A DNA stretch of 64,000 bases. Source: an uncultured delta proteobacterium (lineage in GTDB: Bacteria; Desulfobacterota; Syntrophobacteria; BM002). Under the pieces are notes generated by a model. It worked only from the letters and a program-made list of their open reading frames with translations. It ran no database searches and was not told where the DNA came from. The stretch lies in contig CAVQGX010000026.1 in assembly GCA_963712115.1 (NCBI GenBank), forward strand, positions 76,055-140,054. Direction: 5' to 3'. Below are positions 49,051-53,420 of the stretch, one piece after another. The position numbers and the translations under genes were made by a program. Position 1 is the first letter of the stretch, and every line of letters begins with the position of its first letter.

Positions 49051-50535
49051 ATGCCAGAAAAAAAGGACATTGAAATAAAAAGCAGGGTCGACACCATAGG
49101 TCTGATGGATATGGATGTTAGGCCCTACCCGGTCACACCGCCGCCTTCCTACGAGCAAGTTAAGCCGGTGTACGAAAAAAGGAAGGCGCTGGAATTCTGT
49201 GACTGGGCCGAGGACAACCTCAAATTCGAAAAAAGATACGGCAAAGATCAGTCCCTGGGACACCTCAGGGTTCTGGATATCGGCCTCTGGCGGCTGGGCC
49301 ACAAGTTCTGCGCCTCACTGTTCGGCGAAGCTGGGGCCGAGGTGGTCTCTATCGAGCCGCCCGGCGGCGACCCCTTGCGGAAGCTGACTCCCTTTGGCCG
49401 CGAAGAGTACCTGCTGGAAAATCAGGAAACCGGTGAAAAGTGCGGCATGGAGTTCGTCTGCGAGACGGTGAACACCCACTGCGTCACCCTGGATGTCGAG
49501 ACCGAGGAGGGCCGGGAAATTTTCAAGCAAATGGCCCAGAACGTCGACGTGTTGATCGACGGCATGCCTCCCGGCTACATGGATAGTCTGGGTATCGGCT
49601 ACCGGCAGCTCAAGAGAGCCAACCCCAAGATGGTCTACGTCTGGGTTGGCATGCTCGGCCAGTGGGGCCCCTGGAAGGACAAACAGTCCAAGTTCGGCCA
49701 GTGGGAGCTCGAGCCCTTTGCCAGTTGTGCCAACTCCTGGGTGCACAACACTGGTTTGGCTCAGGACCTGCTCCCTAGGGGCAAGGGCGGCGACCCGACC
49801 CGCTCGGGTATCTGGCTTGCCGACTATGTTGCCGGGGCGCAGGGATTCCTTAACGCCAATGCGGCCCTTTACTGGCGGGACGAACTGGGGAACACCGGCC
49901 AGATGATTGAGGTCACCGGTGCCGAAACGCTGATGGACATCATCGACTTTGATATCACCTGGTATGGTTTCAATGCCAGTATCAAAGGAAGATCCGGCGG
50001 CTGGGACCCCAACCTGAACCAGTATGCCTGGAACCCCTGCAAGGACGGCTACATGATGATCGGCGGCCAGACCGACAAGCTCTGGTACAACATCGGCTTC
50101 TGCATCGAGCGCGATGACGACCAGTTCGGCCGGCTGATCCACGAAGATCCCTTCCTCAAGGAGATGGGAGCCAGGAACGCCCTGCACGCCCTGATCAAGA
50201 CCTACTCTCTGACCACTCGCTGGCTCAGGGACACCAACAGGGTCGAAGCTGAAACCAAGCTGCTCGAGTACCAGCTTGCGGCCGGGCCGATTCTCTACAT
50301 CGACGAGGTCGCTGAGTTCCCCCACTTCAAGTACCGTCCATGGCAGTACGTCCATGAGACCGACTACGGCCCGCTGCTGATTGCTTCGAGCCCGGCGTCC
50401 TATCAGGTGCGAGCGCCCTTCAGATGCAAGTGGATGGGCAGAGACGTAGGGTTTGACAACTACGAAATCTACCTGAAATGGACTGGAATGACTCAGACCA
50501 AGGTTAATGAACTCAAGGCAAAGGGGGTAATCTAA
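49051..50535 (+). CDS. Family III (CaiB/BaiF) CoA-transferase-like subunit A
   Basis: [41 protein letters not shown] (catalytic-Asp position). Confidence 0.88.
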
Positions 50536-51950
50536 TGGCAAAAGATCCAAGAGTAACACGTATAGAAGACCTGCCAGGCCCCAAGAGCAAGGGTGAAATG
50601 GATGAGATGAAGATGCCCTACGAGGAGTACTGTAGGAAAATCTTCGATGTGGGCAATGAACACACCAAGCCCATCGCGCTTAAAGGGATTCGGTGGCTCA
50701 GCTGCACCATGTATATCTTCACGCCCCACTCTGTGGCCAACCTGGCCGAACTGGGGGCCGAGGTCATCAAGATTGAGATGCCGAGGATGGGTGACGCCAT
50801 GCGGCACACATCCCCGTTTAACGAGTGCTACCTCTATCCACTCCACGACACCCGTCCCATGACCGGAACCGGCCTAGGTTTCACCAACGCCAACCCCAAC
50901 AAGTATTTTCTCACCATGGATTACCACATCCCCGAGATGGTGGAAGTCTTTTACGGGTTGGTGAAGAAGTCCGACGGCCTAACCGAGCTTTACCGGCCGG
51001 GAACCCTGGACAAGTGGAAGATGAGCTACAGGTACCTGAGTGAAATCAACCCCCGGTTTATCTATGTCTGGGGCGGCGGTTTCGGCTACGGCCCCAAGAT
51101 CTTCGGCGGTTCCTACGACATCCTGGGCCAGGCCCACGCCGGACTCGCCTCCATAACCGGTATGCATGAGTTCATGGGGGGCCATGCAACCAAGCAGACT
51201 AACTGGGTCATTGACTGGCAATCGGGCAACCTGATCACCTGCTCAATCCTGGCGGCCATCCACCATCGGAGAAAGACCGGGCTGGGCACCATGATCGAAT
51301 TTTCCCAGGTACAGGTCCCGACCCGGATGCTCGGACATACCTTACCCATGTACGGCAAGTTCGGTATTGTCCGCCAGCGCTGGGGCAACTGGGACACCCA
51401 GCTGGCAGTGCACGGCATCATCCTCTGCGGCAAGTCCGATTTTCCGGATTACGACAATCCGCAGGACAAGTTCTGTGCGCGCTATGTCATGGTCAGTGCC
51501 TTCCAGGATGAGGACTTCAAGGAGCTCTGCAACATTACCGGCATGAAGGATCTCTACGGCAAATACAAGGCTCACAAGGACCGGGCGGAAGGCGAGGCTC
51601 AGGTGGAGATCTATGCTGCTCTGGAGCAGTGGGCGTCCGACAAGTCCAGGTCCCAGGTTGCCAAGATCCTGCAAGATGCAGGCCTCCTGGCCGAGCCTGT
51701 TCGCAACGACCGTGAGGCTTACGAGAGCCCACACTACCGGGAGAGAGGCACGGTCCGCTGGCTGGACGATCCCCTCTTCGGAGATATGCTGCTCCATGCC
51801 GGCTACAGCTGCGGGTTGATGGAAAAAACTCCGAGAAGGATCAACTGGCACTGGCGCCCGGTTGGTGCGGACAACAAGAAGATCTACCGTGACCTGCTCG
51901 GCGTTCCGCTCACTAAAATCAAAGAGTGGTATGACAAGGCCTGGATCTAA
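50535..51950 (+). CDS. Family III (CaiB/BaiF) CoA-transferase-like subunit B
   Basis: [42 protein letters not shown] coupling to subunit A. Confidence 0.88.
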
Positions 51951-51964
51951 AAGGAGGGACCACT

Positions 51965-52450
51965 GTGTGTGATATAATCTGGTGCAAAAAAGAAGTTGGT
52001 GGAAAAGACTGTGACACTATCAACTACCTGGACCCCTACTGTTTCTGGAACTGGGAAGGCACGATTAACTGTGCCGAGTGCGGTACGGTGTACTACATCC
52101 ACATGATCCAGGGATTCATGTACAAGGGGCCGGAGGAGAGACCCGGCGAGAAGCCTGACACCAGCCCGCTCTATGCGGACAAGCCCTTCGAGGGCTACGC
52201 CAACTACAGACCAGGTGTCGAGGGCAGGACCAGGCCTTACGAGTGCAAGCCAAGGTCCTGGTTGACGGGCGTTGCGGATATGGTCAAGTTCAGCATCCGG
52301 GGCCGGCCGGTGCGCGGCTGGCGTCCGCAACCGCCTTCTGCAGGTTTGGCCGGAAGCTTCGGTTTCAGCTGGGATATTCAGAAACTGTCGCCCGAGATCT
52401 GGGAAGAGTATCAGCAGAAGATGGCGAAAGGCGAAGTCAAGGAGTGGTAA
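51965..52450 (+). CDS. Hypothetical Cys/Trp-rich protein (zinc-ribbon-like N-terminus)
   Basis: AGGAGG RBS, GTG start; C..C and CAECG motifs. Confidence 0.85.
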   Translation: MCDIIWCKKEVGGKDCDTINYLDPYCFWNWEGTINCAECGTVYYIHMIQGFMYKGPEERPGEKPDTSPLYADKPFEGYANYRPGVEGRTRPYECKPRSWLTGVADMVKFSIRGRPVRGWRPQPPSAGLAGSFGFSWDIQKLSPEIWEEYQQKMAKGEVKEW

Positions 52451-52469
52451 CTGGAGAAAGGAGTGTCAC

Positions 52470-52703
52470 ATGGCAGAGTTAACCCCAGAAGAATTTCTGG
52501 ATACCGTATTGGTGCCGGAAAAACAAAGTGACCATATATGCTGGAATTGCCGGGGCTTGAAGCCTGTTCTCAAGGGTTCCAAGTTTCCGCCCGCAGACAT
52601 TATCGGTTGGTGCATGAAGATCCACTGGCCCCATTACTGGTGCATAGCGGATTTCAACGTGGTCAAGAAGTGCTATGCCTTTGAGCAGAGAAAAAAAGGC
52701 TAG
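52470..52703 (+). CDS. Hypothetical 77-aa Cys-rich protein
   Basis: AAGGAG RBS; CWNC...GWC...WC...C. Confidence 0.8.
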   Translation: MAELTPEEFLDTVLVPEKQSDHICWNCRGLKPVLKGSKFPPADIIGWCMKIHWPHYWCIADFNVVKKCYAFEQRKKG

Positions 52704-52704
52704 C

Positions 52705-52986
52705 ATGGAAGAAAACGTCCGCCAAGAACTCGATGTCCTCAAGCAGATGATTAACAACTGGAAAAGGGGTTTTATGAGCTGGGCATCCCCTGACGGGGAT
52801 GACCAACACGTGCTTCTGGAATTCACCGAAGAGATCCAGGAGCAAATTTACCCCTATGTCACCAGATTGCGTGAGGCGGAACACCTCAGCGATGCTGAGG
52901 CCAGAGAGTTCATGGATTATTGTTACAGCCAGGTTGAAGATCTTCGCAACCAGTTGCAGGAAGTGGAAACCGATAAAAGTGAATAA
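52705..52986 (+). CDS. Hypothetical 93-aa acidic helical protein
   Basis: ATG 1 nt after the previous stop; amphipathic helical composition. Confidence 0.8.
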   Translation: MEENVRQELDVLKQMINNWKRGFMSWASPDGDDQHVLLEFTEEIQEQIYPYVTRLREAEHLSDAEAREFMDYCYSQVEDLRNQLQEVETDKSE

Positions 52987-52997
52987 GGAGGTTTAAC

Positions 52998-53420
52998 ATG
53001 CCTGAAAAATGTCGAGTGGTGGTCTGCGGCTTCGATCCCATGCTCGTAAAAGCCTATGCGGCTGCCAACATGAGAGCCTGTTGGTGGCATATACCCGACG
53101 CGCTTTACGAGGAATTTGGCATGAAGCCGGGAATGAAGGTTTCCGGCAAGCTGCTCAAAATCTACTCCGGCAAGACCGGTAAGGAAGAAGCAGCTCCCAA
53201 TGAAGCCTTTGAGTGGGAGACCGCCAAGGAGACCGGCCGGGTCGTCTTGCTGCCGTCTGACGTGATCAAGAAGTACAAGGTCACGGAATTTCATTTCTTC
53301 GAGATGAACATTGAGAAGATTGATGGCAAAGACGTCGCCGCCGGTAAAGAAGTGAAGAGCAAGAACTGGTGGCCGGATGACAAGATGAAGCTGGACTATA
53401 GTCTGGACTACATCGAGTAG
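52998..53420 (+). CDS. Hypothetical 140-aa protein
   Basis: TAAGGAGG RBS; same codon bias as the operon. Confidence 0.85.
   Translation: MPEKCRVVVCGFDPMLVKAYAAANMRACWWHIPDALYEEFGMKPGMKVSGKLLKIYSGKTGKEEAAPNEAFEWETAKETGRVVLLPSDVIKKYKVTEFHFFEMNIEKIDGKDVAAGKEVKSKNWWPDDKMKLDYSLDYIE

Follow-up and report, generated by a model that had tools for sequence, protein, structure and literature searches.

A six-gene block joining two family III CoA-transferase paralogues with four small proteins in an uncultured delta proteobacterium

A 64,000-nucleotide stretch of DNA from an uncultured delta proteobacterium (contig CAVQGX010000026.1, positions 76,055–140,054; the whole stretch is hereafter called the window) carries, in the list of its open reading frames (ORFs), a block of six, G1 to G6, all on the plus strand between positions 49051 and 53420. 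G1 (49051–50535, 494 amino acids) and G2 (50535–51950, 471 amino acids) encode paralogous members of the family III CoA-transferases; the catalytic position is occupied by Glu221 in G1 and by an invariant Asp195 in G2, which is likely the catalytic subunit. Four genes for small proteins follow: G3 (51965–52450, 161 amino acids, GTG start), a zinc-ribbon-like protein with an extended tail; G4 (52470–52703, 77 amino acids), with a four-cysteine (Cys4) site; G5 (52705–52986, 93 amino acids), the least conserved of the six, for which 52705 is the most likely start; and G6 (52998–53420, 140 amino acids), a small beta-barrel protein. A 143 amino acid ORF starting at 52272 was considered as an alternative for G4, but it overlaps G3 and is not conserved as such, and the 77 amino acid ORF at 52470 was retained instead.

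The organization of the block is compact. The stop codon of G1 and the start codon of G2 share one base (TAATG), and the gaps between G2 and G3, G3 and G4, G4 and G5, and G5 and G6 amount to 14, 19, 1 and 11 nt, respectively. Ribosome-binding sites of the GGAGG type precede G1, G2, G3, G4 and G6, with a weak site ahead of G5. Downstream of G6 lies an intrinsic terminator (53519–53563, plus strand) composed of a hairpin (53519–53555) and a U-run; the hairpin has a folding energy of -30.6 kcal/mol (z-score -3.4), and none of 200 shuffled sequences was as stable. The original prediction, made from the DNA sequence alone, had described tight packing, strong ribosome-binding sites and a closing terminator, and these are present apart from the weak site at G5. 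It had also pointed to a richness in tryptophan, which holds (2.1–5.1% across G1 to G6, against 0–1.7% in the other genes of the window), and to a stronger preference for G or C at the third codon position (GC3) than in flanking genes, which holds in part. GC3 is 0.77 for G1, 0.76 for G2, 0.73 for G3 and 0.70 for G6, above all 23 other genes of the window (0.40–0.69, with GroEL at 0.60), while G4 (0.61) and G5 (0.59) fall within that range. The raised GC3 could reflect expression bias, horizontal transfer, or both. G2 is 77–80% identical in contigs labelled Terriglobia, Anaerolineales and Sulfurifustaceae.

Both large proteins match the CaiB/BaiF family (PF02515) far above its cut-off of 23.3 bits, G1 with 195.6 bits (E 1.7e-57) and G2 with 228.5 bits (E 1.7e-67). 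The matches start at residue 71 of G1 and residue 49 of G2, and the N-terminal extensions that had been proposed for the two proteins are therefore real. None of the NCBIfam equivalogs for formyl-CoA, mesaconate, glutarate, oxalate or carnitine transferases came near its cut-off, the best score being 129 bits against a requirement of 700 (NF041294). G1 and G2 are 26% identical to one another. Searches of sequences in the PDB returned formyl-CoA transferase (PDB code: 10uh) as the best match for G2, with an E value of 3.8e-26, followed by BbsF (9fn0_B, E 8.8e-22); the best matches for G1 were a CaiB/BaiF protein (4ed9), 10uh and 9fn0_A (E 1.2e-16).

Residue conservation was followed in a joint alignment of 230 distinct sequences, comprising 125 relatives of G2 and 105 of G1. 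The residue corresponding to Asp195 is aspartate in 125 of 125 G2 relatives, and its column coincides with the Y-D motif of the formyl-CoA transferase 10uh. The same column in the G1 relatives holds glutamate in 79, aspartate in 24, and glycine and alanine in one each. The aspartate nucleophile typical of family III CoA-transferases is thus carried by G2 only, and the expectation of a catalytic aspartate in both subunits stands for G2 and fails for G1, which has Glu221 in the window. The usual N-terminal loop is replaced in both families, as had been noticed for the window, and the replacement is itself conserved: L/M-G-H/N in G1 (LGH here) and F-T-P in G2. A GD..R motif and 50-odd further columns are common to the G1 and G2 families.

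The four small proteins had been described as belonging to no known family, and this description holds: neither G3, the ORF containing G4, G5 nor G6 has a Pfam match (with a threshold of E ≤ 0.01 for G3 and the G4-containing ORF) or an NCBIfam match. The cysteine clusters noticed in two of them proved to be invariant Cys4 sites. In G3 the invariant residues are C7, C16, C36, C39, C94 and a C-terminal tryptophan, and the C-terminus is conserved as G-E-V-x-D/E-W; shorter relatives show a plain CxxC...CxxC pattern. In G4, H22, C24, C27, C48 and C68 are invariant among 29 sequences. These sites are of the kind that binds metal, and from the cysteine patterns both proteins are probably zinc-binding. 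A comparison of the G4 profile with G3 revealed no relation between the two.

The AlphaFold2 (AF2) model of G3 (pLDDT 83) has a beta-rich N-terminal half followed by an extended tail of lower confidence. A search with this model returned no fold in the PDB at E ≤ 0.001 (Foldseek), and the best Z-score in a wider structure search was 3.3; these results are no proof of a new fold. At the level of sequence, the PDB held nothing meaningful for G3 and the ESM Atlas gave only clusters named 'hypothetical'. The G3 profile matched just 50 cluster representatives among 1.84 billion proteins, and all source names of the relatives read 'hypothetical protein'. The G4 profile likewise found nothing meaningful among PDB sequences. 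For G6 the AF2 model is of high confidence (pLDDT 93.8), and its best fold matches are PhS018 (2glw; Z 7.4, root-mean-square deviation 3.0, 88 residues aligned) and PG0164 (2d9r; Z 6.7), both small barrels of unknown function, which we take to belong to the swapped-hairpin or AbrB-like barrels. The G6 sequence had no PDB match and no usable match in the ESM Atlas. A complex prediction for G2, G3, G4 and G6, with G3 as the partner and G1 left out, gave scores of 0.01 and 0.00 against a mark of 0.32 and speaks neither for nor against an assembly.

The proposal that the six genes would be found together elsewhere was confirmed by an analysis of synteny. Relatives of G3 occur in 30 of 41 related genomes (19 of the 24 of high quality), and a G3 relative is encoded in 198 of 220 candidate stretches from a genome collection and 345 of 595 from a metagenome collection. 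Among 172 loci with G3, 106 have room for all six genes; G1 to G4 and G6 are present in all 106, and the complete set is found in 97, with identical order in every one (97/97). The remaining nine lack only a detectable G5. In six of these the spacing between G4 and G6 is 166–197 nt, and in a seventh (L102) it is 9 nt. Sequence identity across loci is 70–96% for G2 and 33–88% for G5. The conservation of G3 and G4 equals that of G2, with 65–96% identity across the bacterial phyla sampled, and in proteins labelled archaeal G3 is 47–68% identical.

According to record titles, the module is found in contigs labelled Syntrophobacteria, Desulfobacterales, Binatia, Methylomirabilota, Anaerolineales, Terriglobia and Sulfurifustaceae, and carriers include contigs from peat, soil and hot springs. 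Among cultured organisms, the complete module is carried by the isolate Desulfoferrobacter suflitae DRH4, and a G2 homologue with 74% identity is present in Desulfacinum hydrothermale DSM 13146. The source labels of matching proteins add Desulfacinum hydrothermale, Thermodesulfobacterium, Archaeoglobus (G2 identity 72%), Thermoplasmata and Methanocellales. A second copy of the module, without the hydrolase gene described below, is present in the genome from which the window comes; its proteins are 64% (G1), 75% (G2), 80% (G3), 79% (G4), 43% (G5) and 58% (G6) identical to those of the window. This copy is divided over two contig ends (the end of C23 and the start of C25; loci L009 and L010) that overlap by 2669 nt at 99.8% identity, and the pair is an assembly split rather than two extra copies. 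Because the genome is rated 6% contaminated, the second copy could belong to another organism.

The G3 profile also detects a distant family of 125–140 amino acid proteins, and a profile of this family matches 42 of 401 sampled genomes of the same phylum, 16 of them at E < 1e-40. In all seven contexts that were fetched, the distant protein follows a pair of transferase genes, G1' (40–44% identity to G1) and G2' (43–49% identity to G2). The association between a family III heterodimer and a ribbon of the G3 type therefore predates the six-gene form. In one such sister module (L202) the same strand continues with a 125 amino acid protein, an AMP-forming ligase, an HDAC-like protein and a 4HBT thioesterase, and lacks the hydrolase gene found beside the six-gene module; profile comparison revealed no relation between the 125 amino acid protein and G6. 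Ligase and thioesterase recur with the heterodimer–ribbon pairing. Upstream of the sister module there are also three tandem genes for proteins of about 123 amino acids and a gene for a protein of about 480 amino acids (L202:3223–5775, L201:2301–3788 and L205:2392–5854), without Pfam matches.

A sigma-70-like promoter (TTGACA, 16 nt, TATTAT) is predicted at 48294–48321 on the plus strand, with 11 of 12 consensus positions. It is kept in five loci of the same genus, and the surrounding 74-nt block is also found in a locus of another genus (L019). Between promoter and G1 extends an unusually long, conserved leader of about 730 nt (48322–49050, plus strand). In the five same-genus loci the leader region is 72–82% identical over about 800 nt and contains invariant blocks: an inverted repeat that immediately follows the -10 element, a GC hairpin around 48594–48609, and a block near 48940 that resembles a ribosome-binding site and is followed by a tiny ORF of 8–10 codons. 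A search of Rfam with region 47500–54500 at E ≤ 1 gave a chance match to a long non-coding RNA, and none for the leader. The leader could be a regulatory leader or a small RNA. A scan for the sigma-54 consensus gave 38 matches in the window against 36 expected, with none in 48107–49050.

Parts of the window are held in 20 public sequencing runs, six of which are RNA libraries; four RNA runs, from three studies, were mapped as contigs. In each of the four sediment RNA runs (4/4) there is cover over every one of the 17 bins between 49042 and 53410, with summed depths of 82–529, compared with 0–13 in bins 47757–48527 and 0–28 in bins 53411–54952. The contigs cover 48175–49145 and bridge the junctions of leader and G1 (48556–49145), G1 and G2 (50398–50696), and G5 and G6 (52978–53251). 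At the end of the block the depth falls from 139–178 to 0.5–16 in bin 53411–53667, a drop that coincides with the terminator. The block is thus present in RNA libraries, which gives a hint of high expression and is no measurement of level. For the suggestion that the block is highly expressed, presence in all four runs is such a hint; contig depth cannot rank genes, and the raised GC3 may reflect transfer. Low cover over the bins of the flanking thioesterase and hydrolase genes may result from lower sequence conservation at the 90% threshold and is not proof of silence.

The two flanking hydrolases named in the original prediction are recurrent neighbours of the module. Downstream, at 53746–55011 on the plus strand, lies a gene for a metallo-beta-lactamase (MBL)-fold hydrolase fused to tetratricopeptide repeats (TPR), with matches to PF00753 (E 6e-27) and to TPR families. 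Its metal-binding HxHxDH motif is intact (HGHRDH in the translation). The best NCBIfam match, to GloB (5e-15, 55.5 bits), is below the cut-off of 200.8 bits and leaves the specific function unassigned. Of 114 loci that offer room for it, at least 97 have an MBL–TPR gene as the adjacent downstream gene in the same orientation. In the window it sits behind the terminator, where RNA-contig depth is low. Docking of the TPR domain on the C-terminal tail of G3 was considered; this tail shows the same degree of conservation in the 16 loci that have no adjacent MBL–TPR gene, and the idea gains no support and meets no objection from the data. On either side of the MBL–TPR gene lies one copy of a direct repeat some 130 nt long (53605–53765 and 55070–55227), the first of which has 20-nt inverted arms around a G-rich core. 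Low-depth contigs from two of the RNA libraries (runs X16 and X17) join 53673, 53674 or 53681 straight to 55141 and so represent a form without the MBL gene, which suggests that the gene has been gained or lost between relatives through recombination at the repeat.

Divergent from G1 on the minus strand is a gene for an acyl-CoA thioesterase of the YbgC/FadM type (47690–48106), supported by matches to PF13279 (E 1e-21) and TIGR00051 (73.2 bits, cut-off 68.7). Thioesterases of this type (4HBT) neighbour the module in 17 loci of two lineages. Neighbours were counted within 8 kb in 18 lineages (110 loci) with at least 3 kb of flank. The most widespread were AMP-forming acyl-CoA ligases (eight lineages, 19 loci) and sigma-54 activators with PAS/GAF domains (eight lineages, 48 loci), followed by a small receiver-like protein (seven lineages, 43 loci), LivK-type binding proteins (six lineages, eight loci), a ClpX-like AAA+ protein (five lineages, 19 loci), GNAT proteins (four lineages, 19 loci), and HDAC-like (four loci), U32 peptidase-like (seven loci) and ThiF-like (six loci) proteins in three lineages each. 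The ligases fall below every NCBIfam cut-off and are nearest to a fatty-acid subfamily and the benzoate-CoA ligase family. In the window itself neither a regulator nor a ligase adjoins the module, which is preceded instead by a 940-nt upstream region, and an HDAC-like gene is located 4.9 kb downstream. As had been remarked for the window, beta-oxidation genes are missing from its surroundings: the annotated flanks of the window and of related loci contain no gene for an acyl-CoA dehydrogenase, hydratase or thiolase.

What is observed comprises the assignment of G1 and G2 to their family, the conservation of their residues, the synteny and the presence in RNA libraries. Building on these, the interpretation that we favour, to which we give an even chance, is that the module encodes a heteromeric family III CoA-transferase with zinc-ribbon scaffold subunits that acts on some carboxylic acid. 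G1 and G2 would constitute the heteromeric core, in the manner of BbsEF, with Asp195 of G2 as the nucleophile that carries first the acyl group and then CoA, and with G1 as a partly degenerate partner bearing glutamate or aspartate at the same position. That a carboxylate is kept in 103 of 105 G1 relatives (E or D) and in 125 of 125 G2 relatives supports a transferase. G3 and G4, with their Cys4 and probably zinc-binding sites, the G6 barrel and the dispensable G5 would be subunits without a catalytic role that serve to clamp the core or to bridge it. The enzyme would move CoA from a thioester donor to a carboxylic acid. In many lineages the first thioester would be supplied by the AMP-forming ligase, the operon would be switched on by the sigma-54 PAS regulator, and the acid would be brought in by a binding-protein-dependent or major facilitator superfamily (MFS) transporter. 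The MBL–TPR hydrolase and the YbgC-type thioesterase could then release CoA from the product or from stray thioesters. In this proposal we infer the physical assembly, zinc binding, transferase activity and the hydrolase roles.

Several known systems offer partial comparisons. The closest in plan is BbsEF, the succinyl-CoA:(R)-benzylsuccinate CoA-transferase (PDB code: 9fn0), which like the module consists of two paralogous family III subunits from adjacent genes. BbsEF is encoded within a beta-oxidation operon and, to our knowledge, has no small subunits; the identity is in the twilight zone, and in the module the pair is tied to four additional proteins and the annotated flanks hold no beta-oxidation genes. 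Formyl-CoA transferase (Frc/YfdW) is the best solved relative of G2 (10uh), and its Y-D motif aligns with Y194–D195 of G2, but every NCBIfam score falls far short of its cut-off (127 against 442 bits). Frc is a single-gene homodimer partnered with oxalyl-CoA decarboxylase, and no gene for that decarboxylase was found in any annotated flank. The dimethylsulfoniopropionate (DMSP) CoA-transferase/lyase DddD is one fused polypeptide in which two CaiB-like modules work together in chemistry that goes beyond transfer; the present module, in contrast, comprises two genes and four small ones and has no link to DMSP, and DddD was compared by description only. For G3 and G4, the DUF35/BbsA-type subunits of thiolase complexes, small Cys4 zinc-ribbon proteins that hold CoA-ester enzymes together, provide an analogy of working and not of membership (no Pfam match at E ≤ 0.01, no match to a solved fold). 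In a cycle of the CaiB–CaiC type the first thioester comes from a ligase, after which CoA is recycled by the family III transferase, and GNAT/HDAC pairs (AcuA/AcuC) switch such ligases. The likeness is not universal, with a ligase neighbour in 8 of 18 lineages, GNAT in four and HDAC-like genes in three, and none of these adjacent to the module in the window. We found no published description of the module in a literature coverage that did not extend to subscription journals and supplements.

A number of observations weigh against a scaffolded transferase. The related loci reduce to 33 lineages at 85% G2 identity and are hence not independent, and the physical assembly of the six proteins would follow only in so far as synteny and co-conservation are a guide to it. 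Where the aligned solved transferases carry an H-P motif, G1 and G2 have a G-x-W-D signature, and together with the altered loop this suggests that the active site may be non-canonical. To pair a transferase with thioesterases would be wasteful of thioester energy, unless the hydrolases do no more than proofread. Neither the ligase nor the regulator nor the transporter reaches half of the lineages with flanks, and no conserved pathway enzymes for an acyl-CoA product stand beside the module in the annotated flanks. As regards the RNA libraries, the contigs were taken from a likeness of 90% upwards, the stretch itself governed which runs were selected, conserved genes draw the contigs of relatives, and depth therein cannot serve to rank genes.

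Some of the same features could be explained if the family III fold were used for chemistry other than transfer, as in a CoA-ester racemase or isomerase, an intramolecular transferase or a transferase–lyase of the DddD kind, with the cysteine-rich subunits or the MBL hydrolase completing the reaction and releasing the product. Racemases and 2-methylfumaryl-CoA isomerase are among the PDB matches, and the fold is thus capable of such reactions; the conserved replacements of loop and motif in both G1 and G2, the hydrolase attached in at least 97 of 114 loci, and annotated flanks free of downstream acyl-CoA pathway genes point the same way. However, the racemase and isomerase matches (E 1e-7 to 1e-9) are far weaker than those to transferases (E 1e-19 to 1e-26), a carboxylate is kept at the nucleophile position in both subunits, the Cys4 sites look like structural ribbons, and the priming ligases nearby suit a transferase cycle. 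We consider such chemistry rather unlikely. Its more far-reaching form is a new CoA-dependent metalloenzyme, in which the family III scaffold, with altered loops and paired Glu/Asp active sites, would go beyond CoA transfer, for instance by cleaving or rearranging the bound acid, the Cys4 subunits would take part, and a tethered MBL–TPR hydrolase would release the product in a high-flux and hitherto unrecognised step of the carbon or organosulfur turnover of anoxic sediments; this we regard as distinctly improbable.

Other alternatives retain the transferase and differ over its substrate or its partners. The enzyme might serve a short-chain acid of the acetate or propionate type, with acetyl-CoA as partner, at a high-flux step in sediment sulfate reducers and syntrophs. 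This is an unlikely assignment in our estimate, although one lineage (L107) has genes for an ADP-forming acetyl-CoA synthetase-like protein, a DRTGG (Pta-like) protein and a bona fide acetyl-CoA synthetase (ACAS_N) directly upstream, the RNA-library contigs lie over the block in all four sediment runs, and by their record labels the carriers include organisms of narrow substrate range. GNAT and HDAC-like genes also recur nearby, and pairs of this type regulate acetyl-CoA synthetase in the AcuABC system. Against it, the ligase neighbours, below the NCBIfam cut-offs, are closest to fatty-acid and benzoate-CoA ligases; two copies of the module in one genome and the common PAS–sigma-54 control would suit inducible catabolism of a special substrate; and LivK-type transporters also carry aromatic acids. 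The propionate CoA-transferase of Syntrophobacter fumaroxidans, Sfum_3933, was considered as a member of the module and rejected: it lies in a different cluster, with electron-transfer flavoprotein (ETF) and acyl-CoA dehydrogenase genes. Finally, the small genes might not encode subunits at all and instead be independent proteins (assembly factors, regulators or unrelated) that share an operon with a two-subunit transferase. Their subunit role is an indirect deduction, G5 is dispensable in at least seven loci, and the fold class of G6 is related to AbrB-like DNA-binding barrels. Yet G3 and G4 are kept at an identity as high as that of the enzyme (65–96%, and 47–68% for G3 in archaeal-labelled proteins), the gene order is the same in 97 of 97 complete loci, the extended low-confidence tail of the G3 model is of a kind that usually orders on a partner, and G3 also accompanies the sister transferase pair. 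We hold independent small proteins to be very improbable.

Family III CoA-transferases are well-studied enzymes of one or two subunits. One invariably accompanied by three to four small proteins of its own, as the favoured scaffolded transferase would be, would represent a new architecture for such an enzyme. Its degree of conservation is unusual, with G2 at 70–96% identity across contigs assigned by label to at least seven bacterial groups. The module is carried by sulfate reducers, syntrophs and uncultured lineages of sediment, peat and groundwater that drive the last steps of anaerobic carbon breakdown, and finding the substrate could fill a gap in how they activate an abundant organic acid. 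Cultured carriers exist, which makes the question directly testable.

Further gene groups were observed at a distance from the module. Upstream in the window, at 43831–47300 on the minus and plus strands, a sulfur-handling run comprises a ThiI-like gene with an NFACT-R_2 domain, LarE (TIGR00268, above cut-off) and HcyBio/COG1900; the arrangement HcyBio–thioesterase–G1 recurs in close relatives only (seven loci). Farther upstream, on the minus strand at 28732–38956, are a LivK-type ABC transporter, two PaaK-like AMP-binding ligases (AMP-binding_C_2), a DUF362/Fer4 protein and a dihydrolipoamide dehydrogenase-like gene, a possible cluster for uptake and activation of aromatic or branched acids at 12–20 kb from the module. 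In five lineages the module is followed downstream by a set that encodes a protein of about 405 amino acids without family, one or two small proteins, a ClpX-like AAA+ ATPase (367 amino acids) and a 267 amino acid protein with a weak JAB match (E 0.008), found at L177:13139–19016, L138:13309–19212, L084:3431–8067 and L017:11110–14257. The MBL genes reported beside E1 and JAB genes (Iyer et al. 2006, PMC1779556) were considered and set aside, as they belong to other operons. In L177 and L138 a ThiF/E1-like protein also follows. By its composition the set resembles a system for ubiquitin-like conjugation or an unfoldase system.

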